Origin: a virus
UHGV virus genome: UHGV-0332176
Reading direction: 5' to 3' (one strand)
DNA length: 64,000 nt
The notes under the pieces are model-generated. The model saw only the letters and a list, made by a program, of their open reading frames with translations, made no database searches and was not told the origin of the DNA. Numbering within the stretch: the stretch's first letter is position 1; every line of letters begins with the position of its first letter. The position numbers and the translations under genes are program-made. Shown here one piece after another: positions 1 through 50,431 of this stretch.

Positions 1-124
1 ATATCATACAAATTTATTTTTAAAAACAACTGTTAAACCAGGACATTTAAGTCATTTATCTAAACAAGAAATTAATGATAAAATTGGTAATTTCTTTCCT
101 ACACAAGAAAGATTTCAAGAATTT

Positions 125-397
125 TTGTTTACTTTTTATATGCGTGAAGGAGCAGAAGAATATCATAATTTATTCAGTAATGATTTAAGAGCAGATGAAG
201 TTAGAAAAAATTATAATATTGATACAAAACGAAATATTAAATTTATTCGTGATAAACAAACATTAGAAGAAACTATTGATTTAATTGATGAACATATAGA
301 TAATTTATCGTGCGGACATTCAACAATATATCAATGTTATGTTGATTCTGATGACTGTTGCATTTGTAATAAACAAGAAATAGGAGAATTATTTTGA
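125..397 (+). CDS. hypothetical protein with Cys-rich C-terminus
   Basis: ORF track; CGH...CY...CC.C cluster near the C-terminus; no recognisable family. Confidence 0.35.
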   Translation: MFTFYMREGAEEYHNLFSNDLRADEVRKNYNIDTKRNIKFIRDKQTLEETIDLIDEHIDNLSCGHSTIYQCYVDSDDCCICNKQEIGELF

Positions 398-2611: not shown

Positions 2612-2911
2612 TTATTCTTTTGGATATTTTTCTTTAATTGATTTAATTAATGTTTGCCAGTTATTTGTTCCATCTTCTAAATCGTGATATATCATATCTA
2701 ACTGTTCAGTTAATGGTGGATATTCTTTTATTCTATTATTAATAGCAACAGCATTATGTGATTCAGATTCTTTAATATATTCTCCATTAACTAAAATATA
2801 TTTTTCATTTGTTTTCACTATTTTATCAAATTCCATAAGAGGAATAGATTCAATTTCTTTCTTTGTATTTTTAACTACAATAATCTTGTTATTTTGATAA
2901 CCTAACCACAT
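2612..2911 (-). CDS. small protein between fibre paralogs (possible fibre assembly/adaptor protein)
   Basis: ORF track; its start abuts the stop of 2911..4176; the function is a guess from position only. Confidence 0.3.
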   Translation of the reverse strand: MWLGYQNNKIIVVKNTKKEIESIPLMEFDKIVKTNEKYILVNGEYIKESESHNAVAINNRIKEYPPLTEQLDMIYHDLEDGTNNWQTLIKSIKEKYPKE

Positions 2912-4176
2912 TATATTTCCCCTTTTGCATAGATAAATTTAAAACTAATTAAATTTGTAAATTCAGTATCAAACAATATTTGACAAATTTCACCTTTTAA
3001 AACAGGTATAATTGTTCTTAAATATTTGTCTGCACTTCTTGATGCATAACAATAACCATAATTTAAACCACTTCTTATAATAGCTATATCAACCCAGTTT
3101 GGCCCTTGCCCATCTATACTGAAATAACCATTTGCTGGAGCAATATAAGTTGCTCCTGATGCACCTAAAGTTAATGAAACATATTTACTACCTGGCATAA
3201 CTTGTTGTGTAATAAATGTAGTATCATTTTTATCAAATAATTGATATGCATTATTAAAACTAAATGTAGTAATTTTTCCAGAAGCATCAGTTAAAAATGT
3301 TCCAATTGGACATACTACCCAATCATTTAACCATCCATTTGAAATATCATTTAAAACATATTTCCATTTATTTTCATTTGGAGAATACCAAATAGAATAT
3401 GTAGATAATGTTGGTGCATTATTTTGATAATAAACTTTTGATGTTTCTAAAAACTCTAATTGTCTTTCATCATCTGAAACTCTAGCAAATAATGTATATG
3501 ATGTATTTGGAGCTAAAGATATTGTCCAATAAGTTAAAGTAGGTAAAATTTTTACAATATTATTTTGACTTCCATCATCATTGTTACCATTTGGAAATAT
3601 ATAAGTATTTCCACCATTTTTAATTATTGTATTTCCAATAAAACCAAATCCGTTAAATACTTGGTCAATAGATGTCCAAGATGTTGTAGTAGATGTTCCA
3701 ATAGCAAATGGAAAAGAACATTCTTGCCAACCATCAATTGTATCCAAATAACATTTTTTATCAGTTGTATTAAAATAAATTTTAAATGTTGCAGTTGATT
3801 CGGGTAATTCAGATACAGTTTCACCTGTTAAAAATCCAATTAATAATACATCATAATCTTTAGAAAGTGCTAACATAACTTGACCATCATAATTTGCATT
3901 TTCACTTGTAATATCTGTTGTGGTAGTTTTCATAATACCATTACCATTATAAACTTTACTACCTGCTTTAAGTGTAATTGTACCATTATTTAATTCAAGT
4001 TTAATATCTTGAGGTATTTTTGTTAAACAGTTTGTAATTTGACCATAAGTCCAATATGGTTTAGAACCATTATTACTTAACATCATTCCTGATGTTTCAT
4101 CATTCATTAATGGCATTTGAACACCATTTAACATAATTTTTTGACTAAGTTCATTGTTACCTAAATATAATGTCAT
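2911..4176 (-). CDS. tail fibre / receptor-binding protein, paralog B
   Basis: Shares the ~180 aa core with 1243..2547; C-terminus ends ...YAKGEI like paralog A (...FAQGE). Confidence 0.6.
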   Translation of the reverse strand: MTLYLGNNELSQKIMLNGVQMPLMNDETSGMMLSNNGSKPYWTYGQITNCLTKIPQDIKLELNNGTITLKAGSKVYNGNGIMKTTTTDITSENANYDGQVMLALSKDYDVLLIGFLTGETVSELPESTATFKIYFNTTDKKCYLDTIDGWQECSFPFAIGTSTTTSWTSIDQVFNGFGFIGNTIIKNGGNTYIFPNGNNDDGSQNNIVKILPTLTYWTISLAPNTSYTLFARVSDDERQLEFLETSKVYYQNNAPTLSTYSIWYSPNENKWKYVLNDISNGWLNDWVVCPIGTFLTDASGKITTFSFNNAYQLFDKNDTTFITQQVMPGSKYVSLTLGASGATYIAPANGYFSIDGQGPNWVDIAIIRSGLNYGYCYASRSADKYLRTIIPVLKGEICQILFDTEFTNLISFKFIYAKGEI

Positions 4177-6034: not shown

Positions 6035-6559
6035 ATGAATGATATTAGTAAAATTAAGAGTAATAGAATTGATGATGGAATAAAACCTGGTGATTTATGT
6101 TATTCATTAAGAACAGAAAAAGAAGGATGGTTATTATGTGATGGAACAAGTTATTCAACAACTGATTATCCTGATTTATTTACTGTAATTGGTTATACAT
6201 TTGGTGGAAGTAATTCTCAATTTAATGTGCCTAATTGTTCTGGTAAATTTTTACAAATGGATACATCTAAAACCATAGGACAAAATATTGAAGCTGGTCT
6301 TCCAAATATTGATATGAGTGCATCATTTTATTTAATAGAAGCTCACGGTAGATTTATTGGCTTATCTAATAATACAGGTTCAGTATATGGTGAAGATGCA
6401 GGTGCAATAGAAAATGCTAATGGTGGTGGTGATGTTGGCAGTAATGCTCCAAGAAAAATTCATATAAATGGTAATTTAAATTCATATAATACAATTTATG
6501 GTAATTCAAACACAGTACAACCACCAGCTATAATTGTTAACTATTTTATCAAATATTAA
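6035..6559 (+). CDS. phage tail collar domain protein
   Basis: GWLLCDG...YPDLF..IG.TFGG...FNVPN..GKF matches the phage tail collar domain consensus; paralog of 13821..14336. Confidence 0.7.
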   Translation: MNDISKIKSNRIDDGIKPGDLCYSLRTEKEGWLLCDGTSYSTTDYPDLFTVIGYTFGGSNSQFNVPNCSGKFLQMDTSKTIGQNIEAGLPNIDMSASFYLIEAHGRFIGLSNNTGSVYGEDAGAIENANGGGDVGSNAPRKIHINGNLNSYNTIYGNSNTVQPPAIIVNYFIKY

Positions 6560-6598: not shown

Positions 6599-7003
6599 AT
6601 GACAGATACAAGTAAATTACCTATTTCACGTGTTGATGAATTAATTGATAAATTAGATGAAATTAATATTAAATTAACCAATTTAGAAAATTCTCGTAGA
6701 ATTATTGAAACCTGGTCAGAAGGAACTGAATGGTATCGTGTGTGGTCAGATGGTTGGATTGAACAAGGTGGAACAACTGGATTAATAACATCAAGTGATG
6801 GTTATACAGCAACAACAATTCAATTTAAAAAATCATTTATTAATACAAATTATACTTTTACATCTTGTGCAAATAAATATTCATCTCAAAATGGATTAGG
6901 AACTGCTTATCCACCATTTATTTTTACAAAAAATAATAATTCAGTTATAATTGGAAAATATTCTTGGACAGATGGTTTAGATTGGTATGCTTGTGGATAT
7001 TAA
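6599..7003 (+). CDS. small fibre-associated protein (paralog of 48320..48706)
   Basis: N-terminal 60 aa nearly identical to 48320..48706 (MTDTSKLPISRVDEL..KLDEIN..LTNLEN.R.IIETWSEGTEWYRVWSDGWIEQGG); ends W...CGY. Confidence 0.5.
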   Translation: MTDTSKLPISRVDELIDKLDEINIKLTNLENSRRIIETWSEGTEWYRVWSDGWIEQGGTTGLITSSDGYTATTIQFKKSFINTNYTFTSCANKYSSQNGLGTAYPPFIFTKNNNSVIIGKYSWTDGLDWYACGY

Positions 7004-8283: not shown

Positions 8284-9302
8284 TAACCAGCAGCAATTGT
8301 CATTCCAGTACGAGTTACTGCTGTTGCTCCTCTAACAACAGATAAAGGTATTTCATTAAATGCTACTGGAAAAACAGGATTTACTAAATTCCCCCATTGT
8401 TCTTTCCAACCATCTGAATAAATTCTATAACCTGTTGTACCTGATTGTTCTTTAATTATATATCTGCTTTGATATGATGAAGCTAAATCTTCCATTGGAT
8501 AATAACGAATAATATTATCAGCATTATCAGAAGCAGTTATAAAATCACCGATTTTTTTACATTTTAATTTATTATGAAATATATTACCAAATTCATTTCC
8601 ATAAGTAATAAAAAATTCTTTATTTTCATTTAACCAAATTTCATATTTCATTAAAGGATAATGAGTTGACCACGCTGTTGTTAAATCAATTATTGTATCA
8701 TTTTCAAACTCAATAAATTTTTTATCTAAAATTTTTTTTAAATGATAACCTGTTTCAATTGGTATATAATATAATAATGTATCACCTTCATTCATTATTG
8801 GTTTATCAGCATAACTAGAAATAATCATATCAAATTCATTCATATAATTTTTAATATGACAAAGATAATGTTTTAATGTTGTTCCAGATGAAGAATCAAT
8901 TCCACCTGCTCCATTTGTATTATATAATAAAGTTGAATATCTTGTTTCATAATTTCCAATATTTAAATCCATTGGTTGAAATTGATATGTAGATGTAATA
9001 TCCCATAATGGATATTTTAAATGAAAATCTTGCTTTTTTGTTTGATTATTATGAAGAAAATAGTCACATATTTTGTCTAAATATGTATAACCTTTTTTAA
9101 TAATTAATTGATTTCCAGAAATTTTTAATGTTAATCCTTTTGAAGAATTTGACAAATTATATTTTTCTGAAATATTAATTGGATTAATAAAAGTTAAATC
9201 GGTTGCATTTTCATTAACTTTTAAAATTCCATTTTCATTAGTTGGAATTGAGCGTTCAAATCTATTAATTTTTACTTTATTAGTCATATTAATATCCTTC
9301 AA
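8262..9302 (-). CDS. tail fibre protein, shared C-terminal module family
   Basis: C-terminus GTTGYRIYSDGWKEQWGNLVNPVFPVAF...GMTIAAGYWFAKGY; overlaps neighbours by 22 and 14 nt, suggesting translational coupling. Confidence 0.55.
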   Translation of the reverse strand: MKDINMTNKVKINRFERSIPTNENGILKVNENATDLTFINPINISEKYNLSNSSKGLTLKISGNQLIIKKGYTYLDKICDYFLHNNQTKKQDFHLKYPLWDITSTYQFQPMDLNIGNYETRYSTLLYNTNGAGGIDSSSGTTLKHYLCHIKNYMNEFDMIISSYADKPIMNEGDTLLYYIPIETGYHLKKILDKKFIEFENDTIIDLTTAWSTHYPLMKYEIWLNENKEFFITYGNEFGNIFHNKLKCKKIGDFITASDNADNIIRYYPMEDLASSYQSRYIIKEQSGTTGYRIYSDGWKEQWGNLVNPVFPVAFNEIPLSVVRGATAVTRTGMTIAAGYWFAKGY

Positions 9303-10473
9303 CTTTCCAATTTCTTGCTGTAATTGTCATTCCAGTTGTTGTTACATTTGTTGCATCTCTTTCAACAATTTGTGGAATATTTGTAAAAGCTACTGGAAAT
9401 GTTGGATTAGCATTATTACCCCATTGAATTTTCCATCCATCTGAATAAATTCTATAACCAATTGTTTCTAATGATTCAGCAATAACATTTCCGTGAGAAA
9501 ATGCTTCTGTTAAAGTTAATGTTGGATAATAATAATTAGTTATATTCATATTATTAACATTAAAAAATCCTATTTTTGCAAATTCTGTATATCCATCTGG
9601 TAATGTTGGTATTTCATCAATAGAAGTTAAAATTTTACTTTCACCGTTATCATTACCAATTGCAAAAATATTATAATATTGACTTGGAATTCTATAATCG
9701 TGATAATATGCAACAATAATAAAACGACTAATTCCTATTAATCCTGCTGCTCTATTTGATAACAATCCATTATATCTAAAATAAGAATATTCTTTTAAAG
9801 TTTCTTTAGCTTGATATTCATTAATTGCATTTGCTGCTGTATTAGGAACTATATCTTTATTATTAACTGAAACTAATGTATCCCAATTTATTCCATCTTG
9901 AGATGCTAAAATATCAAATACAATTCCGCAAGAAGTTGCTTCATTTCTATTTTGAATAACAAATTTTTCAACTCTAACTGGAAAAGGTATTTTAATTTGT
10001 AACCAATGTGGATAAGCTGTATTATTTAATGATGCCCACGCATCTGATTCTGATGAATTTGTTCCATTAAATGCTTTCCAAGCATCATATGTTGTACTTG
10101 TTATATCACTTGCCGATGCTTCACAATTATTACTAATATTACTTGTTAATATTGGTTGATTCCATAAACGTTCAGTTATTTTATCAGCTGTACCACCATC
10201 ATTAATACTTTTACTTACATCAAATGTCCCACCAGTAAAATTAATCATTTTATTATTTTGGCTTAATACAGAACCATTTGTTATAGTAATGGTTGTTCCA
10301 TTAATAGCAGTAATTTTAAATGAATTAACTGTATTATCAATATACATTAAATTGGATATTTTTGTTTTATCTATATATGATATGTCATTTGAATTGTTCA
10401 CAATTAGTTTTCCAACATTATTTTCTAATGCAGGTAATTTTTCAACTAATCTTGAAATCTTTATTTTATCCAT
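9289..10473 (-). CDS. tail fibre protein with discoidin-like (F5/8 type C-like) carbohydrate-binding domain and shared C-terminal module
   Basis: Central W.....A.DG..W-type region (DAWKAFNGT...HWLQIKIP.PV.V..F.I.NR......GIVFDILASQDGINWDTL); C-terminus ...GYRIYSDGWKIQWGNNANPTFPVAF...GMTITARNWKVEGY. Confidence 0.55.
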   Translation of the reverse strand: MDKIKISRLVEKLPALENNVGKLIVNNSNDISYIDKTKISNLMYIDNTVNSFKITAINGTTITITNGSVLSQNNKMINFTGGTFDVSKSINDGGTADKITERLWNQPILTSNISNNCEASASDITSTTYDAWKAFNGTNSSESDAWASLNNTAYPHWLQIKIPFPVRVEKFVIQNRNEATSCGIVFDILASQDGINWDTLVSVNNKDIVPNTAANAINEYQAKETLKEYSYFRYNGLLSNRAAGLIGISRFIIVAYYHDYRIPSQYYNIFAIGNDNGESKILTSIDEIPTLPDGYTEFAKIGFFNVNNMNITNYYYPTLTLTEAFSHGNVIAESLETIGYRIYSDGWKIQWGNNANPTFPVAFTNIPQIVERDATNVTTTGMTITARNWKVEGY

Positions 10474-13820: not shown

Positions 13821-14336
13821 ATGGCATTATATCTCGGAAGTAATGAAGTTTCTCAAAAAGTTTTATTATTAGGTGGAAATAAAAGTGATATAGAAGTTGG
13901 TGATTTATGTTATTCATTAAGAACAGAAAAAGAAGGATGGTTATTATGTGATGGAGCAAGTTATTCAACAACTGATTATCCTGACTTATTTGCTGTAATT
14001 GGTTATACTTTTGGTGGTTCAGAAAATAATTTTAACGTTCCAAATTATAAAGGTAAATTTCTTCAAATGATTAATGATAATCAAACAATAGGTCAAAATA
14101 TTGAAGCTGGTTTGCCTAATATTACAGGTAATTTTAGTGCATATAATAATGCTGGTATAGATACTGCTAATGGGTCATTTTATTTATCTAATGCACAACA
14201 TATAAACTATGCTGGTAGGTCAGAAAGAGATACATATCTTTGTAATTTTGATGTATCTCGTTCTTCTTCAATATATGGAAAATCAAATACAGTACAACCA
14301 CCTGCTTCTATTGTTAATTATTTTATCAAATATTAG
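13821..14336 (+). CDS. phage tail collar domain protein (paralog of 6035..6559)
   Basis: GDLCYSLRTEKEGWLLCDGASYSTTDYPDLFAVIGYTFGG nearly identical to 6035..6559; ends ...PPASIVNYFIKY. Confidence 0.7.
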   Translation: MALYLGSNEVSQKVLLLGGNKSDIEVGDLCYSLRTEKEGWLLCDGASYSTTDYPDLFAVIGYTFGGSENNFNVPNYKGKFLQMINDNQTIGQNIEAGLPNITGNFSAYNNAGIDTANGSFYLSNAQHINYAGRSERDTYLCNFDVSRSSSIYGKSNTVQPPASIVNYFIKY

Positions 14337-14426
14337 CGACAAATAACGATGACACACAATTTATTAGTAATTTCAATAACTTATTTCATTTTTCGGTTAT
14401 TAAACAAATAATAATGACATAAAAAC

Positions 14427-14452
14427 AAAGCTCCCAAATGGGAGCTTAACTT
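14427..14452 (+). terminator. rho-independent terminator-like hairpin aagctcccaaatgggagctt after 13821..14336
   Basis: 8-bp GC-containing stem with a 4-nt loop followed by T-rich sequence. Confidence 0.45.
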
Positions 14453-14519
14453 ATTTATGTATTATTTCAGTCGCAGTCATTTCTGTTGCAAGGATAACTG
14501 TTTCCCCACTAAACATAAA

Positions 14520-14660
14520 AGCATTCATCCGTTAGGATTAAGCAGCAATTACATTATAGTTATAGTTAACGTTTTCGTTAGCATTCATTTTATTTTGAAC
14601 CGATATTGGTGGTATCTCGCCAGGTACATTATAGCCATTTTCAATAATGTTCAAAATTCC
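14520..14660 (-). pseudogene. possible decayed DGR variable-repeat-like remnant (non-coding)
   Basis: On the minus strand ...aatgctaacgaaaacgttaactataactataatgtaattgctgcttaatcctaacgg; its 3' part matches the VR 3' end/IMH region of the DGR target (cttgctgctaatgctaaggg) at ~19/21 positions with one indel; Asn-codon rich; no intact ORF. Confidence 0.3.
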
Positions 14661-14864
14661 GTCCGCCCCTAATACATTGATTTTTCATAATATTTTCCTG
14701 GTGGAGCGGCTGGGAGTTAAACCCAGGTCACTATCATTTACTTTGGGATAATTTATCAGCACCATTCAAAATTATTTATAAATTATTTTATTTTAATTGT
14801 CAATAAAATAATTTAGGACATAAATACAGTTATAAGCAATTCACAAATTTAATAAAGGATTATA

Positions 14865-15668
14865 ATGATATATTATGTTTATCAAATAACAAATAAAATT
14901 AATAATAAAATTTACATTGGAAAAAGAAAATATAAAGGAGAAAATCCTTTATTAGATTCATATATGGGGTCAGGAAAATTAATTAAAGAAGCAATTAAAA
15001 AATATGGAAAAAATAATTTTCAAAAAAATATTATTCAAAGTTTTGATAATGAAAATGATGCTTTTAAATTAGAAAAAGAACTTGTAACAAAAGAATTCTG
15101 TAACAGAAAAGATACTTATAATATTCACGAAGGTGGTACAGGAAGTTTTTCTCACATTAATAATAAACCAATTGAAAAAAGAGAAAATATTATAGCTGTT
15201 AGAAAATTATTAAATTCAGGAGTAAAATTTGGTGGAAAAAAATATTTTACAGAAGAAACTTATCAAAAAATTAGTAATTTTAATAAAGAACGATGGAAAA
15301 CTTGGAAAGAAAAACCAGAATTAATGCCAGATTTTTATATAAAACCTCGTACAGAAAAATTTAAACAACATTTATCAGAAATTTTTAAAGGTCAAAATAA
15401 TCCTAATTTTGGTAAACATTGGTATATTCATAAAAAAGCTATTAATATTAATGAAAAGAAAATGTTTTTTGATAATGAAATACCACAAGGTTTTATTACA
15501 GTAAAAGAATGGAAAGATTTACATAAAAATAAGAAAAATAAAGCATATGGAAAACATTGGTATAATGATGGTAAACAAAATTATTTTTTATCCCCAGATG
15601 ATGAAAAAATTAAAATATTAAGTAAAGGGCGTATTGGTACTCTTTTTAAAAAAATTGAAAGTAATTAG
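14865..15668 (+). CDS. GIY-YIG homing endonuclease (Seg/I-TevI-like)
   Basis: N-terminal IYYVYQITN...KIYIGK (GIY...YIG motifs); C-terminal repeated NPNFGKHWY / AYGKHWYNDGK DNA-binding motifs typical of phage GIY-YIG endonucleases. Confidence 0.8.
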   Translation: MIYYVYQITNKINNKIYIGKRKYKGENPLLDSYMGSGKLIKEAIKKYGKNNFQKNIIQSFDNENDAFKLEKELVTKEFCNRKDTYNIHEGGTGSFSHINNKPIEKRENIIAVRKLLNSGVKFGGKKYFTEETYQKISNFNKERWKTWKEKPELMPDFYIKPRTEKFKQHLSEIFKGQNNPNFGKHWYIHKKAININEKKMFFDNEIPQGFITVKEWKDLHKNKKNKAYGKHWYNDGKQNYFLSPDDEKIKILSKGRIGTLFKKIESN

Positions 15669-15705
15669 AAAAAGATTTATATTAAATTTTAATGGTTCAA
15701 AGTTT

Positions 15706-15823
15706 ATTCGTTTTGCAAGCTGGTGGTAATTGGAATGATTCATCTAACTACGGAGTTGGTTCTCGTAATAGTAACAATTCTCGTGCTAATTTGAACGACA
15801 ATAACTCGGTGCGAGGGCTTGAT
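15706..15823 (+). repeat. DGR template repeat (TR)
   Basis: Ungapped match of ~115 nt to the reverse complement of 17400..17517; 19 differences, every one at a TR adenine (19 of 29 adenines, 0 of ~86 non-adenines); 11 AAY codons in the VR reading frame. Confidence 0.88.
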
Positions 15824-15948
15824 ATAATCTCTTTTTTGAGCATTAGCTGAATTTTGAACCTTGTCTTAATAGGCTAAACATCAAAATTGTAAAAATAATA
15901 TTAGTAAAAGAATTTGAAAATATTATTTTTCAATTAGAGTAAAAATAA

Positions 15949-17298
15949 ATGAAAAGAATTAATAATTTATGGGAAGAATTTACTTCACAAGAACATTGGT
16001 TTGAAGCAAGAAAAAGAGCTTTACGAGGTAAAGTTAAAAAATATTGTGTCAAAGCTATTATGAGAAAAGGTGACGAATATTTAGAAAAAATTCGTCAAGA
16101 TGTTATTAATGGTACTTTTGAATTTAAGGGTTATAAAGAACATACTATTTATGAACCTAAAGAACGTAAAATATTTGTAGCAAGAATTGAAGAAAGAATT
16201 TATCATTGGGCATCAATGATGATTACTGAAAGAATTTTTGAACCAACATTTATATTTGATAGCTATTGTTGCCGTAAAAATAAAGGACAACATAAATGTT
16301 CAGATAAATGCAAAGAAATTGTTAAACATAATAATTATTGTTTAAAATTAGATATTTCTAAATTTTATCCAAATATTAATCATAAAATATTAAAAGAGTG
16401 TTTAGCAAGAAAAATTAAAGATATAAGATTTCTCAATGCTTTATACGCAATTATTGATAGTCATAATAAGGATACTGGAAAAGGTATTCCAATTGGTAAT
16501 TATTCTTCTCAAATTTTTGGAAATATTTATATGACTAAATTAGATATGTTTGTTAAGCACACTTTAAAATGCAAACATTATTTAAGATATTGTGATGATT
16601 TTTGTTTATTTTCAAATGATAAAAAGTATTTAAATTGGTGCAAAGAAAAAATTATTGAATTTGTTACTAATGAATTAGATATGAAATTAAGCAAATGTGA
16701 TTTATTTAAAACTAAACAAGGTGTTGATTTTGTTGGATATAGACATTTTCCTCAATATACTTTAGTTAGAAAAAGAACTGCTAAAAAAGTTAAAAAGAGA
16801 ATGTTAAAAATTCAATATAAATTAAAAAATTATGAATTAACTCAAAAAGAATTATTTAGAATGAATGGGCAAGTTGCCAGCTCATATGGTTGGTGTAAAC
16901 ACGCTGATTCTTATAGATTTATGAAAAAATATAAAATTGAAGAATGTTTAAAGGAGATTATAATGAGATATGCAGAATTTAAAAACAAATTACATACAAA
17001 TAAAATGTTATCAATGAAAATTAATGATTTTATTAATAAAGAAATAACAATAACAGGTTGGGAATATTATAAAAAGAATGATAATAATGAAGATGATAAA
17101 AATAAAGAAGCAGTTAAAACTGTTAAAATACATTTAATATATAATGGTGAAGAAAAAATTATTATAACTAAAGCATCGGTTATTATCAGAGATTTAGAAG
17201 AAATTTCACAATTAGAAAAAGAAGAAAATACAAAGATATTTCCCTTTGATGCAACATTAAAGAAAGATACTAAACGAAATTATTTTTATTTTGAATAA
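15949..17298 (+). CDS. DGR-type reverse transcriptase
   Basis: RT motifs: TIYEPKERKIFVA (motif 1), LKLDISKFYPNI (motif A), GIPIGNYSSQIFGNIYM (DGR-specific IGxxxSQ in place of QGxxxSP), LRYCDDFCLF (YxDD), VDFVGYR; lies between TR and VR; extra ~110-aa C-terminal extension. Confidence 0.9.
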   Translation: MKRINNLWEEFTSQEHWFEARKRALRGKVKKYCVKAIMRKGDEYLEKIRQDVINGTFEFKGYKEHTIYEPKERKIFVARIEERIYHWASMMITERIFEPTFIFDSYCCRKNKGQHKCSDKCKEIVKHNNYCLKLDISKFYPNINHKILKECLARKIKDIRFLNALYAIIDSHNKDTGKGIPIGNYSSQIFGNIYMTKLDMFVKHTLKCKHYLRYCDDFCLFSNDKKYLNWCKEKIIEFVTNELDMKLSKCDLFKTKQGVDFVGYRHFPQYTLVRKRTAKKVKKRMLKIQYKLKNYELTQKELFRMNGQVASSYGWCKHADSYRFMKKYKIEECLKEIIMRYAEFKNKLHTNKMLSMKINDFINKEITITGWEYYKKNDNNEDDKNKEAVKTVKIHLIYNGEEKIIITKASVIIRDLEEISQLEKEENTKIFPFDATLKKDTKRNYFYFE

Positions 17299-17302
17299 AG
17301 AC

Positions 17303-17387
17303 GGGCATCGCAAGGCTGCCCTGTCGTTTGCTATATGACCGCACAAGGCGGTCTAAAAAGAAAAGGATTTGAGTTTTACTCAAATCC
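17303..17387. terminator. three consecutive GC-rich hairpins between the RT stop and the target gene stop (probable bidirectional terminator / DGR VR-proximal hairpins)
   Basis: gggcatcgcaaggctgccc; gaccgcacaaggcggtc; ggatttgag-ttttact-ctcaaatcc (target stop codon lies in the loop of the third hairpin); GC-rich relative to the AT-rich surroundings. Confidence 0.45.
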
Positions 17388-18455
17388 CTTAGCATTAGCA
17401 GCAAGCCCCCGCACCGAGCTACCGTCGCTCAAAGTAGCACGAGAAGCGTTACAATCACGAGAACCAACCCCGCAGATAGATGAACCATCCCAAGTACCAC
17501 CAGCCCGCAAAACGAAACCTTCACCGTAAAAAGAACCTTTACCCATATCAGTATTAATAACAGTCCAACCACTTCCACCAGATGCACCAGTTGAATTTAA
17601 ATATTGCCATAAAGCACCGCAACAATCTTCTATACCATAAACAGAAATCATTCTTCTACCAGCAGTATCTACGTGTCCACCAGTTGTTACTGGGTCAGCA
17701 GCACCAGAAATAGCAGTTCCTTGATTAGAACCAAATGCATATGCAGTAAATTCATTATCATTAGCTAAATGTTTACCAACTGAAAATAAATCTTCTACGT
17801 GATTTTGATAATAACGAGTATCAGTAATTGTTGCACCAAAAACTGATTTGGTATTTAATCCAGTTCCTGATTGTAAATAAATATCACACCATTTATCAAT
17901 TACATCAATATATGCCATTCCATCAACATCAGCAAATCGTGGACGAAATGAGATACAAGATATTGAATTTGGTAATATATCGCCAGCATTATATCCAGAT
18001 AATAAATGTCCAGAAATTGTTCCAACATTAGCACATACAGTATGGAATGAAGATAACCATTGAGTATTAGATGTTGTATATCCTGTTGGAGCATCTGAAT
18101 TTAATGAACAAATTAATTCTTTATCAGAAGTAATATAAATGTAATAAGTTTTTCCAGCTTGTAAAGATGTTCCAGTATCTAAAATAGAAACGGGATTAAT
18201 TTCTTTGGCTTCATAATTTTCATAATTAACTAATTCATTATTAAAAACTAAAGGTATATTACAAGGTTCAAGAATAATTGTTGTTTTATCAAAACAATTA
18301 GTTTTACCTTCTCTAAATAATTGAGTATAAGATTTACCTTTAATTGTATTATCTAATTCTTTAATATGAACAAAACGAAATGTAGGAGCAAATCCGCCTA
18401 ATAATGTTTGTAATCCATATATACGATTAATTTGAACTTTTGAAATATCTATCAT
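17376..18455 (-). CDS. DGR target (variable) protein with C-terminal C-type-lectin/FGE-like variable domain; probable receptor-binding protein
   Basis: Last 38 codons are the VR; C-terminus ...GEGFVLRAGGTWDGSSICGVGSRDCNASRATLSDGSSVRGL resembles the CLec-fold VR of Mtd-like DGR targets (GG.W..G...G); upstream region Gly/Thr-rich. Confidence 0.85.
   Translation of the reverse strand: MIDISKVQINRIYGLQTLLGGFAPTFRFVHIKELDNTIKGKSYTQLFREGKTNCFDKTTIILEPCNIPLVFNNELVNYENYEAKEINPVSILDTGTSLQAGKTYYIYITSDKELICSLNSDAPTGYTTSNTQWLSSFHTVCANVGTISGHLLSGYNAGDILPNSISCISFRPRFADVDGMAYIDVIDKWCDIYLQSGTGLNTKSVFGATITDTRYYQNHVEDLFSVGKHLANDNEFTAYAFGSNQGTAISGAADPVTTGGHVDTAGRRMISVYGIEDCCGALWQYLNSTGASGGSGWTVINTDMGKGSFYGEGFVLRAGGTWDGSSICGVGSRDCNASRATLSDGSSVRGLAANAKGFE
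17400..17517 (-). repeat. DGR variable repeat (VR) at the 3' end of the target gene
   Basis: See TR; relative to TR the codon changes are Q>R, N>T, N>D, D>G, N>I, Y>C, N>D, S>C, N>A, N>T, N>S, N>G, N>S, D>A plus 2 silent; homology ends abruptly 3' of gggcttg (IMH-like boundary). Confidence 0.88.
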
Positions 18456-18482: not shown

Positions 18483-18522
18483 TTTATTAAATAAAAAACC
18501 CACCAATATTTTTAATTAGTGG
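18483..18522 (-). terminator. rho-independent terminator after 18552..18950
   Basis: Minus strand reads cccactaattaaaaatattggtggg followed by ttttt. Confidence 0.5.
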
Positions 18523-18551
18523 GTAATATTTGGAGATAATAACAATATATT

Positions 18552-18950
18552 TTAATTTTCAATTAATTCAACAGTTTGTTTTCCTAATTCTATAATCATT
18601 GAATTAACAATTTTTTCTTCATTTTCACAATCATATGTTGGATGAGAACCATTAGCATCATAATATTTAATATTACATACAAATTCTTCTAAATCTTCAG
18701 AAGGTAATGCACTTTCATAAATTTCATCAGTTCTTTTATCCCTAATATAAATGGTTAATATATATTCATCTAAATGAGCTTCAACAATTTCAAAATCTTT
18801 TGTAAGTTTTTTTGGAAATACTTGTTCAACACCATTTACGGATTTAATTTCCGTTGGTTTATCATTAATTAAAAACCAACTAACACAAGAAATCAAAAAT
18901 GCAATTAATACCACTAAACCAAATTCTTGAAATTTTTTAATAACTTTCAT
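18552..18950 (-). CDS. hypothetical membrane-anchored protein
   Basis: N-terminal hydrophobic segment GLVVLIAFLISCVSWFLI. Confidence 0.4.
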   Translation of the reverse strand: MKVIKKFQEFGLVVLIAFLISCVSWFLINDKPTEIKSVNGVEQVFPKKLTKDFEIVEAHLDEYILTIYIRDKRTDEIYESALPSEDLEEFVCNIKYYDANGSHPTYDCENEEKIVNSMIIELGKQTVELIEN

Positions 18951-19981: not shown

Positions 19982-20056
19982 ATTTTTATCTTTTAAAAAA
20001 ATAAAAACCTATCAAATTATTTTGATAGGTTTAATATATCAAATAAAATTTATTTG

Positions 20057-20704
20057 TCAAGAAATAAAATTAAATTTTTTCATTAATTTTTCAATATTAG
20101 ACATTTTATTTAGAAAATAATTTTCGTTATAAAAACTACTCCATTCCCAAGTAATATATTTTGTAACAACTCTTTTATGTGGTTTTATTTTACAAAATAA
20201 TTCACGACTGCCATCATTCCAAATAACACGACAATCATCATAAAATGTTCCCGAATTTGCATCAACAAAAAATGTATTGCCATCAAATTTTGTAATTTCA
20301 TATTGATAAATTTCTTCAGTTTCATAATGTAATTTAAATGTATTTAAAGAAACTTCTAACATTAGTTGAGTAAATAACCATTTAAAATTTTTAAATTTTT
20401 CTGATGGAGTTTCTCCTTTTAAAAACTTACGTTTAATAAGTTCTTTTGAATATAAACTATATTTAGATAAAAATTCTTCATATTTTTTAAAATTTTCATT
20501 GGACAAACAATTTAAATAAGGTTGAGCATCTTTTTTATACCAAGTAGAGAGAATATCTAATCCTGTTATACACATATCCATATCAGTATTGATAGATATT
20601 TCTGCTTTCCACTTTATATTTTTTAATTTTCTTTTATAATTTAATGCTCGCAATTTAGACATTAATATATTATCGGAATTATAAATTCTTTTAAAAATAT
20701 TCAT
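20057..20704 (-). CDS. hypothetical protein
   Basis: ORF track. Confidence 0.4.
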   Translation of the reverse strand: MNIFKRIYNSDNILMSKLRALNYKRKLKNIKWKAEISINTDMDMCITGLDILSTWYKKDAQPYLNCLSNENFKKYEEFLSKYSLYSKELIKRKFLKGETPSEKFKNFKWLFTQLMLEVSLNTFKLHYETEEIYQYEITKFDGNTFFVDANSGTFYDDCRVIWNDGSRELFCKIKPHKRVVTKYITWEWSSFYNENYFLNKMSNIEKLMKKFNFIS

Positions 20705-21830: not shown

Positions 21831-21906
21831 TGGCACTCCCAAGAGGATTCGAACCCCTAATTTAACGTCCGTAGCGTTATGGTTTTTCCAGTTAGCCTAT
21901 AGGAGC
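21831..21906 (-). tRNA. tRNA-Arg (anticodon ACG)
   Basis: Minus-strand cloverleaf: acceptor gctccta/tgggagt (two G-U pairs), anticodon stem taacg/cgtta with loop ctACGga, T-arm agggg-ttcgaat-cctct, encoded CCA; D-arm irregular. Confidence 0.6.
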
Positions 21907-22969: not shown

Positions 22970-23151
22970 TAATTTTGTTCCTTAAATTTACAAAATAGTG
23001 GATTAGTATCTCCACCGCCTACATAACAAACAACTTCTTCATTTTCACATCTAAGTATTGGAATATAAGTAAAATTACCTTCTCTCACTATTTCACAAGT
23101 CATTGTTAAACCAATTATTAAACAAAACAATTTTTTCATTTTATTCTCCAA
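22969..23151 (-). CDS. small putative lipoprotein
   Basis: Signal-peptide-like N-terminus MKKLFCLIIGLTMTC (lipobox-like Cys). Confidence 0.35.
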   Translation of the reverse strand: MENKMKKLFCLIIGLTMTCEIVREGNFTYIPILRCENEEVVCYVGGGDTNPLFCKFKEQN

Positions 23152-23203
23152 TAAATTATTTAAATAAAATATATCATAAAAAAATTATTTGTCAATAGAA
23201 AAA

Positions 23204-24151
23204 TTAAAATGGATATTTCCCTATTATTTTTTTGATTTCAATAATGCAAGATATAAAATTAATATCTGGAAAAGCTACAAAATTATGCTGATATAAATAT
23301 TTGGCAATTATAATTAAAATATCATCATATAATTTTTCTTCCGTTGTAATCATTGATAAATGATTATACATAAATTGATATAATGATTCATATTCTTCAT
23401 TAGCAATATTTTGAGCTAATAATTTTTTAAGTGTAAAGCAATCATTATTAATATTATTAATTACTTCACTAAATTTATCATATGCATATGCTGCATCATT
23501 TTTTAAAGGTTGTAAAATATTATTAATTGTATTTTGGTCAATTGCATTAATACAAGCTCTTAAATCAGGCTGATAAATTTCAACATATTTAACGACATCA
23601 TTCATATCATTAACAATAATACGTTCATCTTGTAAAATTTTTGCAATACGTCCAACAAATTCTTCAAATTTTAATGTATTAAAATGATAACGTTGACATC
23701 TTGATGTAATAGCAACATCAATTTGAGCAATATTATTTGTTGTAAAAATAAATCTACACCAATTAGAATATTCTTCTAATACATATTTTAATGATGATTG
23801 AGCTTGTTTAGAAGCTCTTTCAAATTCTTCTAAAATAATAAGTTTTACAGTATCTTTTTCTAATGGTGGAACAGATGCATAATCAATAACTTTACGCATA
23901 TCATCAATAGAAGTCTTATCAGACATATTATAACGAATATAATCAGTTAATTGTAATTCATTAATTAAAACATTAATCGATGAAGATTTTCCTGTTCCAG
24001 GAGGACCATAAAAAATTAAATGTGAATCAATAGTTTTATTAGCAATCCACGTTTTAAATTTATTTTCATATTCATCATTAATATATACTAAATCAGAAAC
24101 AGTTTTTGGTCTATATTTTTCAGTTAATATTTGGTTCATTTTCTTCCTCAT
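23204..24151 (-). CDS. sliding clamp loader ATPase subunit (T4 gp44 / RFC small subunit-like AAA+)
   Basis: EKYRPKTVSDLV...LIFYGPPGTGKSS Walker A in RFC-box context; DEAD-like ILEEFE; SRC-like TSRC. Confidence 0.75.
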   Translation of the reverse strand: MRKKMNQILTEKYRPKTVSDLVYINDEYENKFKTWIANKTIDSHLIFYGPPGTGKSSSINVLINELQLTDYIRYNMSDKTSIDDMRKVIDYASVPPLEKDTVKLIILEEFERASKQAQSSLKYVLEEYSNWCRFIFTTNNIAQIDVAITSRCQRYHFNTLKFEEFVGRIAKILQDERIIVNDMNDVVKYVEIYQPDLRACINAIDQNTINNILQPLKNDAAYAYDKFSEVINNINNDCFTLKKLLAQNIANEEYESLYQFMYNHLSMITTEEKLYDDILIIIAKYLYQHNFVAFPDINFISCIIEIKKIIGKYPF

Positions 24152-31437: not shown

Positions 31438-31524
31438 TGGTGGGCATACCGAGAGTCGAACTCGGATGAGGATACCCCCGACAGATTTTAAGTCTGTTGC
31501 GTCTACCAATTCCGCCATACGCCC
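31438..31524 (-). tRNA. tRNA-Leu (anticodon UAA), type II with long variable arm
   Basis: Acceptor gggcgta/tatgccc, D-arm gcggaattggtagacgc, anticodon stem acaga/tctgt with loop ctTAAaa, variable arm cgggggtatcctcatcc, T-arm ccgag-ttcgact-ctcgg, encoded CCA. Confidence 0.8.
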
Positions 31525-33826: not shown

Positions 33827-33913
33827 TGGAAGTCTGGACGAGATTCGAACTCGCATCATCTTTTCAGATATACGGTTTTGCAGACCGCTGTATAGCCATT
33901 CTACCACCAGACT
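33827..33913 (-). tRNA. tRNA with anticodon GCA (Cys-type) but atypically long 17-nt variable arm
   Basis: Acceptor agtctgg/ccagact perfect, anticodon stem gcggt/accgt with loop ctGCAaa, extra arm atatctgaaaagatgat, T-arm gcgag-ttcgaat-ctcgt, encoded CCA; identity uncertain. Confidence 0.55.
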
Positions 33914-33920
33914 TATAAAA

Positions 33921-33995
33921 TGGTACGGTAAGTGAGAATCGAACTCACATATTCAGCTTGGAAGGCTGACGTAATAGCCATTATACCATTACCGC
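33921..33995 (-). tRNA. tRNA-Gly (anticodon UCC)
   Basis: Acceptor gcggtaa/ttaccgt, anticodon stem tcagc/gctga with loop ctTCCaa, T-arm gtgag-ttcgatt-ctcac, encoded CCA. Confidence 0.75.
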
Positions 33996-34000
33996 ATTAA

Positions 34001-34075
34001 TGGAGCGACTTGCGAGAATCGAACTCACATCTAAACCTTGGCAAGGTCTTGTATTAACCATTATACGAAAGTCGC
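34001..34075 (-). tRNA. tRNA-Gly (anticodon GCC)
   Basis: Acceptor gcgactt/aagtcgc perfect, anticodon stem agacc/ggttt with loop ttGCCaa, T-arm gtgag-ttcgatt-ctcgc, encoded CCA. Confidence 0.75.
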
Positions 34076-34081
34076 AAATAT

Positions 34082-34155
34082 TGGCAGGAGCATAGGGATT
34101 TGAACCCCAACAGACAGTTTTGGAGACTGTAATGCTACCGTTACATCATACTCCT
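34082..34155 (-). tRNA. tRNA-Trp (anticodon CCA)
   Basis: Acceptor aggagta/tgctcct (one U-G pair), anticodon stem acagt/actgt with loop ctCCAaa, T-arm tgggg-ttcaaat-cccta, encoded CCA. Confidence 0.7.
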
Positions 34156-47861: not shown

Positions 47862-48323
47862 ATGGAAAATCAAATTACAAAAAATTTTACTTTAGCTGAA
47901 TTAACATATTCTGATACAGCAAATATTAAAAAAATACCAAATATTCCAACAGAAATTGAATATAATAATATGAAAAATTTATGTGAAAATGTTTTACAAC
48001 CATTAAGAGATGCATTAAAAAAACCAATAAGAGTTAATTCTTGTTACCGTGGAAAACAATTAAATGAAGCCGTTGGTGGTTCTAAAACATCTCAACATTG
48101 TAAAGGTCAAGCTGCTGATATTGAAATTATTGGTATGAGTAATTATGATTTAGCTTGTTATATACGTGATAATTTTGATTTTGACCAATTAATTTTGGAA
48201 TTTACAGATAATATTAAAAACGATATTAATGCTGGTTGGGTTCACGTATCTTATGTATCACCAATAGCAAATCGTAAGCAATGTTTAACTATTAATAAAT
48301 CAGGAACAAAACTTGGTTTTTAA
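47862..48323 (+). CDS. peptidase M15 family (zinc D-Ala-D-Ala carboxypeptidase-like; endolysin or virion-associated lysin)
   Basis: SCYRGKQLNEAVGGSKTSQHCKGQAADIEI matches the Peptidase_M15 R...N..GG...S.H..G.A.D zinc-binding signature. Confidence 0.7.
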   Translation: MENQITKNFTLAELTYSDTANIKKIPNIPTEIEYNNMKNLCENVLQPLRDALKKPIRVNSCYRGKQLNEAVGGSKTSQHCKGQAADIEIIGMSNYDLACYIRDNFDFDQLILEFTDNIKNDINAGWVHVSYVSPIANRKQCLTINKSGTKLGF

Positions 48324-48706
48324 TAACCACATACATACCACATACAAGTATTTTGTCCATTGTTTCTCATACAACAAACTACAGAATTAGTTGTAAATTG
48401 TTGAAATGTATAACCATTAACATATGGGTCTTGACCAGTATGTCCAATTTCTGATTGGGTTATTGTATAATTAATTGTTGTATAAGGTTTTTTAAAATTA
48501 ATAGTTATATTTACATCATTACCAGTAACTCGTCCACCTTGCTCAATCCACCCATCTGACCACACACGATACCATTCAGTTCCTTCTGACCAGGTTTCAA
48601 TTATATATCTTCTATTTTCTAAATTAGTTAATCTTGTATTAATTTCATCTAATTTATTTAATAATTCATCAACACGTGAAATAGGTAATTTACTTGTATC
48701 TGTCAT
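48320..48706 (-). CDS. small fibre-associated protein (paralog of 6599..7003)
   Basis: Identical N-terminal 60 aa to 6599..7003; ends ...CMWYVCGY. Confidence 0.5.
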   Translation of the reverse strand: MTDTSKLPISRVDELLNKLDEINTRLTNLENRRYIIETWSEGTEWYRVWSDGWIEQGGRVTGNDVNITINFKKPYTTINYTITQSEIGHTGQDPYVNGYTFQQFTTNSVVCCMRNNGQNTCMWYVCGY

Positions 48707-48793: not shown

Positions 48794-50431
48794 TTACATA
48801 TTAGGTGTATTTTGTCTTATTGCTGACATTAACTTTAAATTAGTTTCAGTATCATCAATAATTAATCCTTCAACCGTTAATAATGAACCTGCAATTGAAG
48901 ACCCATTTTCCAAAGCACAACGAACAACTTTGGTTGCATCTAAAATACCTGCATCAACTAAATTACAGAATTTATCGCATTTAGCATCATATCCCCAAGA
49001 ATAATCATCATTATCTAATACTTTTTCAACAATGACTTCACCAGATTTTCCAGCATTTTCTGCAATTTTTTTCATTGGAGCACTTAAAGATTTTAATACA
49101 ATTTCATATCCAACATTTTCATCATCTGTTATAACAATATTATTTAATTCCTTAATAAGGTCTTTTTGTGCTCTTACTAATGATACTCCACCACCAGGTA
49201 AAATACCTTCTTCTAATGCTGCTCTCGTTGCACAAACGGCATCATCAACACGGTCTTTCTTTTCTTTAACTTCTGTTTCAGTTGCTCCACCAACTTTAAT
49301 AACAGCAACACCGCCAATTAATTTAGCAAGTCTTTCACGAAGTTTTTCTTTATCATATGATGAATCAGTATTTTCAATTTCTTCAGAAATTTGTTTTGCT
49401 CTTTCATCAATAGCTTCTTTACTTCCGTGTCCACCAATAATAATTGTTTCAGTTGGTGTAATTCTAATTTTATCGCAAGAACCCAAATCATCAATAGTTA
49501 CTTTTTCTAATTGAGCACCAAATTGAGTTGAAATAAAATTACCACCTGTTAAAATTGCAATATCTTCCATTTGAAATCTACGAATATCACCAAATGAAGG
49601 AGCTTTAACAGCACAAACTTTTAATCCTGCTTTAATTCTATTAATAACCAATGCTGATAATGGGTCATCTGCCATTTCATCGGCAATCATAATTAATGGA
49701 CGACCAATTTCCATAACATTTTCTAACAAAGGAATAATAGATTGAAGATTGTTAATTTTACCATCATATAAGAAAATATATGGATTATCATACTCAACTA
49801 ATTGTCTTTCTGGATTAGTCATAAAATATGGTGAAAGATAACCTTGGTCAAATTGTAAACCATCAACAATTTCTAATTCTGTCTTTAATCCCTTTGCTTC
49901 TTCAACAGTAACTACACCTTTTTCACCAACAACTTCAATTGCTTTAGCAATAAAATCACCAATTTCTGTATCACCATTTGCAGAAATAGTTGCCAATTGA
50001 CGAATTTCTTCATTTGTTGTTACTTTTTTTGAATGTGATTTTAATGATTCAACTACAACCTTAACTGCATTTGAAATACCTTTTTGAATTTCAGTAGATT
50101 TACGACCTTTAGAAATTGACTTTAAACCTTCTTCAGCAATTGTAGATGCAATTATACAAGTTGCTGTTGTACCATCACCTGCATCTCTACCAGTTTTTTC
50201 AGATGCTTGAATAATCATTTTTGCACCTTCACCTTCAGAGTCCATTAGTGTAACAGATTTTGCAACAGTTACACCATCTTTTGTAACTTTTGGTGAACCC
50301 CAAGATTGTTGAATAGCAATTGTTCTACCAGCAGGACCAGCAGTAGCAGAAACAACATCTGCAACTGTTTTCATACCAGAATATAACGTACTACGAGCTT
50401 CATCACCTTTAATTACTTTTTTAATTGTCAT
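48794..50431 (-). CDS. groEL: chaperonin GroEL (Cpn60)
   Basis: 545 aa; AALEEGILPGGGVSL equatorial-domain signature, DDAVCATRAALEEG, GDGTTTA; collinear with GroEL throughout. Confidence 0.9.
   Translation of the reverse strand: MTIKKVIKGDEARSTLYSGMKTVADVVSATAGPAGRTIAIQQSWGSPKVTKDGVTVAKSVTLMDSEGEGAKMIIQASEKTGRDAGDGTTATCIIASTIAEEGLKSISKGRKSTEIQKGISNAVKVVVESLKSHSKKVTTNEEIRQLATISANGDTEIGDFIAKAIEVVGEKGVVTVEEAKGLKTELEIVDGLQFDQGYLSPYFMTNPERQLVEYDNPYIFLYDGKINNLQSIIPLLENVMEIGRPLIMIADEMADDPLSALVINRIKAGLKVCAVKAPSFGDIRRFQMEDIAILTGGNFISTQFGAQLEKVTIDDLGSCDKIRITPTETIIIGGHGSKEAIDERAKQISEEIENTDSSYDKEKLRERLAKLIGGVAVIKVGGATETEVKEKKDRVDDAVCATRAALEEGILPGGGVSLVRAQKDLIKELNNIVITDDENVGYEIVLKSLSAPMKKIAENAGKSGEVIVEKVLDNDDYSWGYDAKCDKFCNLVDAGILDATKVVRCALENGSSIAGSLLTVEGLIIDDTETNLKLMSAIRQNTPNM

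Follow-up and report, generated by a model that had tools for sequence, protein, structure and literature searches.

The window analysed here, 64,000 nucleotides of UHGV virus genome UHGV-0332176, contains an open reading frame (ORF) of 359 aa at 17376..18455 on its minus strand, as stated in a preliminary description of the same DNA. We propose with high confidence that this ORF (the target) codes for a receptor-binding tail protein of the type of the major tropism determinant (Mtd) of phage BPP-1, and that its ligand-binding face is continually rewritten by an adjacent diversity-generating retroelement (DGR). As parts of a DGR, a template repeat (TR) and a variable repeat (VR) paired through differences at adenines, a DGR-type reverse transcriptase (RT), and a VR with AAY codons at the 3' end of the target were found. 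As features of the Mtd family, the target showed the second domain of Mtd, a C-type lectin (CLec) fold carrying the VR, and the family's variable-site positions. The coordinates of all features are collected in Table 1.

An inverted-repeat search of the window yielded one long pair, 15707-15821 (+) and 17402-17516 (-), each copy 115 nt long, with 84% complementarity. The arms mismatch at 18 positions, all of them adenines of the copy at 15707-15821 (A>G 13-14, A>C 3, A>T 2-3). With 29 adenines among the 115 bases of this copy, the chance of all 18 mismatches falling on them is ~0.25^18, near 1e-11. Since all mismatches were at adenines of the 15707-15821 copy, this copy was identified as the TR, and the one within the 3'-terminal part of the ORF as the VR. 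No further copy of the repeat, and no second VR or target, was found in the 64 kb when both strands were scanned ignoring A positions. Comparison of TR and VR revealed 15 codons that differ, between residues 317 and 349. Two of the differences are silent (G329 and R349) and 13 are non-synonymous: Q317R, N321T, N323D, D324G, N327I, Y328C, N334D, S335C, N337A, N341T, N343S, N345G, and N346S. The preliminary description had placed 14 changed codons within the last 38 residues; the variable codons are indeed 3'-terminal, but the count had to be corrected, eight residues follow the repeat, and the list of replacing residues had left out Arg (Q317R). The diversifiable codons are 15 in number (317, 321, 323, 324, 327, 328, 334-337, 341, and 343-346): ten AAY codons, each giving access to 15 amino acids, and five partly variable codons, with no stop codon reachable. 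The repertoire allowed by the template amounts to ~7e14 protein and 3e17 DNA variants. The VR residues that are invariant across the family (A318, G329, R333, R349, and G350) are encoded by codons without adenines at the first or second position.

The target is a clear homologue of Mtd in both sequence and fold. Its residues 85-165 matched Pfam PF21916 (mtd_2nd) with 42 bits, against a gathering cut-off of 24.6, and its residues 94-352 matched phrog_11262 ('tail protein' in PHROGs) at 1e-42. In a phmmer search of PDB sequences the only significant matches were five BPP-1 Mtd variants (1YU0-1YU4, 2IOU; E 7e-17 to 4e-15), the alignments starting at residue 95 and ending at residue 330 (1yu0/2iou) up to 351 (1yu3). 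A tblastn search of 50,697 phage records recovered BPP-1, BIP-1, BMP-1, and a fourth Bordetella phage, at ~30% identity; the other records recovered were two of engineered T7 and, at 46%, one of a metagenomic virus. An AlphaFold2 model of the target, built on 70 homologues, had a mean predicted local distance difference test score (pLDDT) of 89.5 and a predicted template modelling score (pTM) of 0.88, and it was poor at residues 1-40 only. When this model was compared with the PDB using Foldseek, the best matches were again Mtd (1yu0-1yu4), with E values of 1e-22 to 4e-23, template modelling (TM) scores of 0.68-0.70, 331-337 aligned columns and a root-mean-square deviation of 3.3-3.7. Structure prediction, which the preliminary description had suggested as a check, thus returned a CLec fold of the Mtd kind. 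The next matches, far behind, were other CLec-fold proteins, namely TaqVP (5VF4) and formylglycine-generating enzymes (FGE). These share the CLec/FGE-like fold with the target (Foldseek E 1e-4 to 1e-3) but reach TM scores of 0.24-0.34, lack the second domain of Mtd, and are not phage tail proteins. As in the target, in BPP-1 Mtd a beta-sandwich second domain is followed by a CLec domain bearing the VR, with ~30% identity over residues 95-330. The Gly/Thr-rich middle of the protein had been taken before as a sign of a fibre-like or surface-exposed protein. That stretch (residues ~243-268) is not a fibre-like linker: it is among the most conserved of the family, it belongs to the CLec domain and was modelled with confidence (pLDDT 93-98), and the corresponding segment of Mtd aligns with it.

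In order to compare the variable sites of the two proteins, the diversifiable codons of Mtd were derived from the BPP-1 cassette's own TR (344, 346, 347, 348, 350, 357, 359, 360, 364, 366, 368, and 369) and matched to those of the target through the family alignment. Eleven of the 12 Mtd positions coincide with variable codons of the target, the pairs (target/Mtd) being 321/344, 323/346, 324/347, 327/350, 334/357, 336/359, 337/360, 341/364, 343/366, 345/368, and 346/369. Four further codons are variable in the target relative to Mtd (317, 328, 335, and 344). The variable residues of Mtd constitute a solvent-exposed, receptor-contacting face (PMC5758913; for the complex with pertactin, PMC2408619). 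Because of the positional match, the variable residues of the target are expected to be exposed as well, and by analogy they would form its receptor-contacting face. The earlier view of a diversified ligand-binding surface on a CLec fold is therefore well supported by the Mtd similarity, the fold comparison, and the coincidence of the variable positions.

Evidence for ongoing diversification was obtained from public sequences. The exact target protein belongs to a 90% identity cluster of 400 members, which has a sister cluster of 314. The 29 full-length members that were read are 94-100% identical to each other outside residues 317-346, and across these residues each of the 29 has a distinct sequence. 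Each of the ten AAY codons accommodates 7-14 different residues among them (nine of the ten, 9-14), and the entropy per alignment column averages 2.27 bits over the 15 A-templated codons versus 0.07 elsewhere. Similar observations were made at the nucleotide level. Strain L006, from another sample, has a TR identical to that of the window and a VR that differs from the window's at 20 A sites and one non-A site. In a second lineage (L003-L005, hereafter lineage 2), with 89% nucleotide identity to the window, the TR contains a few non-A changes that have been copied faithfully into its VR, in addition to 18 A-site differences. Rare non-adenine changes were also noticed, namely Lys at AAT-templated codons and the single T>G in L006. 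These results indicated that the DGR is active in natural populations, the tips differing while the template is constant. At two codons the natural copies mostly or always carry a residue other than the templated one: at codon 328 (17472-17474) the template encodes Tyr, yet Cys is present in 27 of the 29 copies and in the family consensus, and at codon 317 (17505-17507) the template encodes Gln, yet only Arg or Leu were seen in the 29 copies. At both, selection appears to act once mutagenesis has taken place. The core of the earlier interpretation of the target as a tropism-determining receptor-binding protein is thereby strengthened, both by the homology to Mtd and by the natural hypervariability of the tip. 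NCBI records in both clusters are already named 'MAG TPA: major tropism determinant [Caudoviricetes sp.]', and as a DGR target the protein is a textbook case of a well-understood system, located in an unusual host genome.

The RT gene matched RVT_1 (1.3e-15) and phrog_1423 (1.8e-101), and its product is 29% identical to the BPP-1 reverse transcriptase Brt (E 8e-42). The ORF is intact, and its translation contains the motif IGNYSSQ, of the form [I/L]GxxxSQ, and the YCDD box. The 127-nt spacer between TR and RT has an unremarkable fold (z = -2.2), and it presumably belongs to the TR-containing DGR RNA. The G+C content of the VR is 55.7% and that of the TR 41.7%, in a window of 25.5%. The TR counterpart of the G+C-rich VR end (GCGAGGG) contains one G/A difference, which is fixed in every VR seen and so is not a diversified site; this difference is not present in the TR of lineage 2. 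The pattern at the two ends looks as a pair of initiation of mutagenic homing sites (IMH/IMH*) would, judging from BPP-1 (PMC5758913). A hairpin that spans the stop codon of the target begins 12 nt past the repeat. It may be the terminator of the target gene and possibly also, by comparison with BPP-1, the target-site hairpin of the DGR. The 77-nt gap between the stops of the convergent RT and target genes has 49% G+C in a genome of 25.5% G+C, and the sequence 17295-17405 folds into three hairpins (z = -5.15; none of 200 shuffled sequences was as stable). The BPP-1 DGR resembles the present one in its AAY-rich template, its adenine-specific mutagenesis, a VR that ends in G+C-rich sequence, and a hairpin that follows this repeat. 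Following this model, a plus-strand transcript comprising TR, spacer, and RT would be reverse-transcribed, with random nucleotides incorporated opposite adenines, and the resulting cDNA would take the place of the VR on the other strand, guided there by the G+C-rich end of the VR and by the hairpin that follows closely. Selection would then keep those tips that are compatible with the scaffold, as could be the case of Cys328.

We also looked for relatives of the target within the window. BLASTP and tblastn searches detected no paralogue of its body (best E 0.15). A hidden Markov model (HMM) of the family, made from the 70 homologues, recognized only the target among all window ORFs, the next hit having E 0.0039 and 9.8 bits. 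Comparison with hhalign of the target against the 434-, 421-, and 394-aa fibre-cassette proteins and a nine-sequence profile of the family of the 394- and 918-aa proteins gave probabilities of 0.2-2%. An AlphaFold2 model of the 394-aa protein matched CBM32/discoidin domains only, not Mtd. A 'P-x-GYT...KIG-x-F' resemblance between target and fibre proteins was considered and discarded, as it was unsupported by BLASTP, HMM, hhalign, or fold comparison. The fibre proteins carry CBM5/12, F5/8-type-C, collar, and glycine-rich domains. The absence of paralogy with the fibre genes, as previously claimed, thus holds for the body of the target but not for its first ~13 residues, which contain a shared motif. 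The N-terminus MIDISKVQINRI resembles those of the 174-aa collar protein (MNDISKIKSNRI) and of the 134-aa protein (MTDTSKLPISRV), and similar N-termini are found in the 346- and 394-aa proteins and in a 128-aa protein encoded at 48320..48706. The motif, M-x-D-x-S-K-[IVL]-x-[IVS]-[NS]-R-[IVLF], is thus common to the target and five other proteins of the window, of which four belong to the fibre cassette. The pattern K[IVL]x[IVLS][NS]R[IVLF] occurs six times in the six-frame translation of the window, always at ORF residues 3-9, while ~0.1 occurrences are expected by chance. The motif is kept in diverged relatives of the 394-aa protein, and only one other Mtd-like protein among ~117 from other phages has it. 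On the basis of these comparisons it is probably a phage-specific common anchor to which a body of the Mtd type was joined, and the target would join the tail through these 13 residues. A second class of N-terminus, M-x-LYLG-x-NE-x-SQK, was noticed in the 421-aa protein (2911-4176) and in the collar protein encoded at 13821-14336.

The way in which the target could be attached to the virion was also considered. BPP-1 carries Mtd at its tail-fibre tips (PMC5758913), and its mtd gene lies directly after a fibre gene. The target is of Mtd size (359 versus 381 aa) and has no shaft, and, the plus-strand block aside, its gene comes immediately upstream of that for the 918-aa fibre protein on the same strand. 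According to these features, an Mtd-like trimer would cap the distal end of a long fibre, for example the 918-aa or the 585-aa one, instead of being a separate short fibre docked by the motif. We regard this arrangement as possible and the less probable of the two, as the N-terminus of the target is unlike that of Mtd and carries the motif of the 394-, 346-, 174- (collar), 134-, and 128-aa proteins. The shared motif fits better with parallel docking of these proteins on a common partner than with end-on capping.

The target gene is preceded by a terminator-like hairpin with a T-run, 43 nt upstream of its start, which sits between that start and the stop of the upstream gene at 18552. In lineage 2 the stem has a different sequence and its pairing is kept by compensatory changes, which argues for a real terminator and hence for a separate transcription start of the target. 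Consequently, the upstream terminator described earlier was confirmed (stem 18524..18498, kept in lineage 2), while a promoter of its own for the target is plausible and none was identified. Matches to sigma-70-like promoters upstream of the target were at the level of shuffled sequences. A T4-like late promoter box, TATAAATA, occurs 20 nt upstream of the target start. The window has 22 copies of this box, 7 of which are found 20-46 nt before gene starts; the one at the target reads TATAAGCA in lineage 2, and this candidate was rejected as not conserved. Separately, a 64-nt direct repeat with 72% identity (20012-20075 and 23147-23210) was observed in intergenic regions upstream of minus-strand genes. 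It has the core TATATCA...TTATTTGTCAA and could be a phage promoter or regulatory motif.

Such a terminator-bounded unit, with small unknown genes and replication genes upstream of it, would also be compatible with a target that is not a virion component and acts as a diversified binder in or on the infected cell, for instance against a host defence or a surface factor; many DGR targets are not tail proteins (PMC5758913). We consider this improbable, given the homology over the whole length to a known tail-tip receptor-binding protein and, in other members of the family, a fusion to T7 tail-fibre N-termini or a gene position behind baseplate or tail-tip genes. In addition, the target shares its N-terminal motif with fibre-cassette proteins, and no signal peptide or transmembrane segment was evident in its sequence. 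Homology to Mtd suggests that the target is present in the virion and binds a receptor.

Several results weigh against the assignment of the target as an Mtd-type tail protein rewritten by its DGR. Its first ~60-90 residues are unlike the N-terminal domain of Mtd and were modelled at a pLDDT of 42-71. That domain, the beta-prism of an intertwined trimer, was not found in the target, whose similarity to Mtd begins at ~residue 95; the N-terminal ~90 residues of BPP-1 Mtd are unrelated to those of the target, which has the phage-specific motif instead. Moreover, the pattern of the N-terminal motif was derived post hoc, from five of the six sequences that match it. Finally, no Avd was found in the 64-kb window by a phmmer search with BPP-1 Avd or by Pfam searches of the neighbouring genes and 71 small ORFs. 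These searches covered the bAvd and 23S_rRNA_IVP families, and BPP-1 Avd as positive control matched PF22296 at 7e-36. Since BPP-1 needs an Avd, the biochemistry of retrohoming in this phage may differ from the BPP-1 model. The failure to find an avd gene in the window, together with the location of target and TR-RT on opposite strands, could also be explained if the DGR were a decayed relic, the TR/VR differences being old and the target no longer diversified. This explanation is scarcely tenable, as the population data already contradict it: the tips of all 29 otherwise nearly identical proteins differ, variation is confined to A-templated codons, strains with different VRs have identical TRs, and the RT ORF is intact, with its catalytic motifs. 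Furthermore, DGRs without Avd represent ~29% of those catalogued, a TR-RT core without avd being a known class, and the presence of DGR components on different strands is a documented variation (PMC5758913).

Analysis of the RT revealed a C-terminal extension that may be relevant in this respect. In three other phages with Mtd-type DGRs there is a separate ORF of 95-98 aa (S) that can be aligned over its whole length with residues 340-449 of the RT; in these phages the S ORF overlaps the stop of an RT of 339-342 aa (E 1.8e-8 and 0.013, in a small database). In order to find further examples, IMG/VR was scanned using an alignment of five S sequences and a pattern taken from within the small protein only, which provided 58 loci (L011-L068). 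At 56 of them an RT was located upstream on the same strand, at 44 of the 58 viral loci the S ORF overlapped the RT stop or started <=30 nt after it, and at 28 a Mtd-like gene was found further upstream. In one locus (L065) S was fused to the RT, as in the window. No match to an Avd family was detected among 150 other small ORFs from the S loci, and no recognizable Avd was seen in any cassette that was examined. The S protein had no match in Pfam, PHROG, or NCBIfam models; single-sequence searches with the RT C-terminal domain yielded 5 and 4 matches, mostly fragments, and against PDB sequences this domain gave chance-level CFAP20 matches only. Judging by its text, the DGR survey (PMC5758913) describes no RT-adjacent protein of ~100 aa. 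The genomic association suggests that the S domain is an RT-coupled factor specific to this DGR lineage. A more speculative idea, which we put forward as a tentative one, is that S is a previously undescribed DGR accessory factor that replaces Avd, and that the target and the fibre cassettes form a two-speed host-range system, with a tip driven by the DGR and with cassettes that recombination between collar-gene paralogues adds or removes, all docking via one N-terminal anchor motif. If this were so, S would be the factor used by a large lineage of phage DGRs that have Mtd-type targets, and the RT-S fusion in a jumbo phage would be Rosetta-stone evidence that S works with the RT. An Avd-less cassette with a small domain fused to its RT also offers a testable lead on Avd-independent DGRs.

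The DGR was found to adjoin the fibre module: its block (13.8-18.5 kb) begins 114 nt past the end of the last fibre gene at 13707, with a plus-strand block (13821-17298) containing a collar gene, a GIY-YIG endonuclease gene, the TR, and the RT gene, followed by the target. The target had been described before as lying outside the fibre cassette, which this arrangement does not bear out. The endonuclease, a GIY-YIG/NUMOD3 homing endonuclease of 267 aa encoded at 14865-15668 (+) between the collar gene and the TR, is present in both lineages, and in lineage 2 an unrelated 135-aa gene takes the place of the collar gene. Nor is the fibre set fixed, as had been assumed: strain L002, from another sample and 99.98% identical to the window, joins position 14123 to 6310 and so lacks ~7.8 kb of the module, with six genes (coding for the 134-, 427-, 346-, 394-, 155-, and 918-aa proteins). 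The junction (L002 14333-14566) lies in the collar paralogues 6035-6559 and 13821-14336, which are 84% identical over 239 nt, and leaves a hybrid collar gene of 163 aa. This looks like the loss or gain of a fibre cassette by homologous recombination, although it may be an assembly artefact. The target would add a fast-evolving specificity to carbohydrate-binding fibres that change by gain and loss of cassettes, and one phage would combine hypermutation of one tip with recombinational exchange of whole fibre cassettes. Within the cassette, the 434-aa (1243-2547, -) and 421-aa (-) proteins are paralogues of 45% identity (E 6e-100) without an assigned family, and the 394- and 918-aa proteins have common C-terminal halves (E 2e-14).

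Comparison with known systems placed the cassette among described types. In the classification of Wu et al. (2018), the target fits category 'a' (Mtd domain, VR of CLec1 type) in domain and size, and the cassette fits Architecture A, in which the TR directly precedes the RT and there is no avd, HRDC, MSL, or CH1 gene; Mtd-type targets account for ~3% of the DGRs in that survey (PMC5758913). BPP-1 differs in having mtd-avd-TR-brt on one strand, whereas here TR and RT are on the opposite strand, convergent with the target, and no avd was found. Brt has 328 aa, in contrast to the 449 aa of the present RT with its extra C-terminal domain, and BPP-1 is a 42-kb podovirus, whereas the carrier studied here is ~285 kb, with 25% G+C and many other fibre genes. 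Closer counterparts are found among metagenomic Mtd-like DGR targets (>1,500 PF21916 relatives; for example, BK063673 'Caudoviricetes sp. vir525', and phrog_11262 with a phrog_1423 RT). These share 40-58% identity with the target over beta-sandwich and CLec domains and have the order target - TR - RT - S. Unlike the present cassette, they have all genes on one strand and S as an ORF of its own, with the target gene placed behind baseplate (wedge) or GpJ-like tail-tip genes. The N-termini of these targets are different, and in some of them a T7 tail-fibre N-terminal domain and a coiled-coil shaft are fused to the protein.

Table 1. Features of the DGR and its surroundings (positions are those of the window; for separate S genes, those of the locus named).
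Feature	Position	Strand	Remarks
Target ORF	17376..18455	-	359 aa, Mtd-like variable protein
Target, N-terminal region		-	Phage-specific; ahead of Mtd second domain
Target, codons 1-13 (MIDISKVQINRIY)	18417..18455	-	N-terminal motif, candidate common anchor
Target, second domain	Residues ~85-165	-	Mtd second (beta-sandwich) domain, by PF21916
Target, C-terminal domain	Residues ~170-359	-	C-type-lectin-fold domain
Variable repeat (VR)	17402..17516	-	Codons 314-351, 3' end of target
G+C-rich VR 3' end (CTCGGTGCGGGGGCTTG)	17402..17418	-	17 nt, candidate IMH
Template repeat (TR)	15707..15821	+	29 adenines of 115 bases
TR-RT spacer	15822..15948	+	127 nt; presumed by position
DGR reverse transcriptase	15949..17298	+	449 aa; RVT_1, phrog_1423
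RT C-terminal part	16966..17295	+	~110 residues, fused copy of small protein S
Separate S ORFs	L008 8781-9074; L009 9201-9497; L010 6198-6485		95-102 aa overall
Hairpin over target stop, then T-run	17362..17390	-	11-13 bp; conserved in lineage 2
Two further G+C-rich hairpins	~17337-17353; ~17300-17325		Between convergent target and RT; conserved in lineage 2
Terminator-like hairpin and T-run	18489..18524 (stem 18524..18498)	-	Upstream of target start
N-terminal motif sites	18417-18455(-); 6035-6073(+); 6599-6637(+); ~9250-9290(-); 10435-10473(-); 48668-48706(-)		Target and five other proteins

The carrier is a human-gut phage of ~285-290 kb (284-290 kb in several independent assemblies) and 25.5% G+C, and a megablast search with 11 kb against sequenced phages gave no match. 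Among gut phages in general, DGRs are very common (PMC8241571), while the authors of a survey covering 224 jumbo phages reported none of the DGR-type CLec (FGS) domains (PMC7824862), in contrast to the active DGR of the ~285 kb phage described here. The solution represented by Mtd, a CLec scaffold diversified at the same dozen positions, has thus been reused almost unchanged in a very different phage.

Other genes of the window were annotated as well. The gene content of the 24-62 kb region is typical of a jumbo phage and includes GroEL (545 aa; region e.g. 48794-50431), Cpn10/GroES, a DnaB-like helicase, a primase, a clamp-loader-like AAA+ protein, a Tpt1/KptA RNA 2'-phosphotransferase, a response-regulator/LuxR-type protein, and a weak DarT-like match. 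Six tRNA genes (Arg-ACG, Leu-TAA, Cys, two Gly, and Trp) were located at 21831-21906, 31438-31524, and 33827-34155, four of them being tightly clustered.

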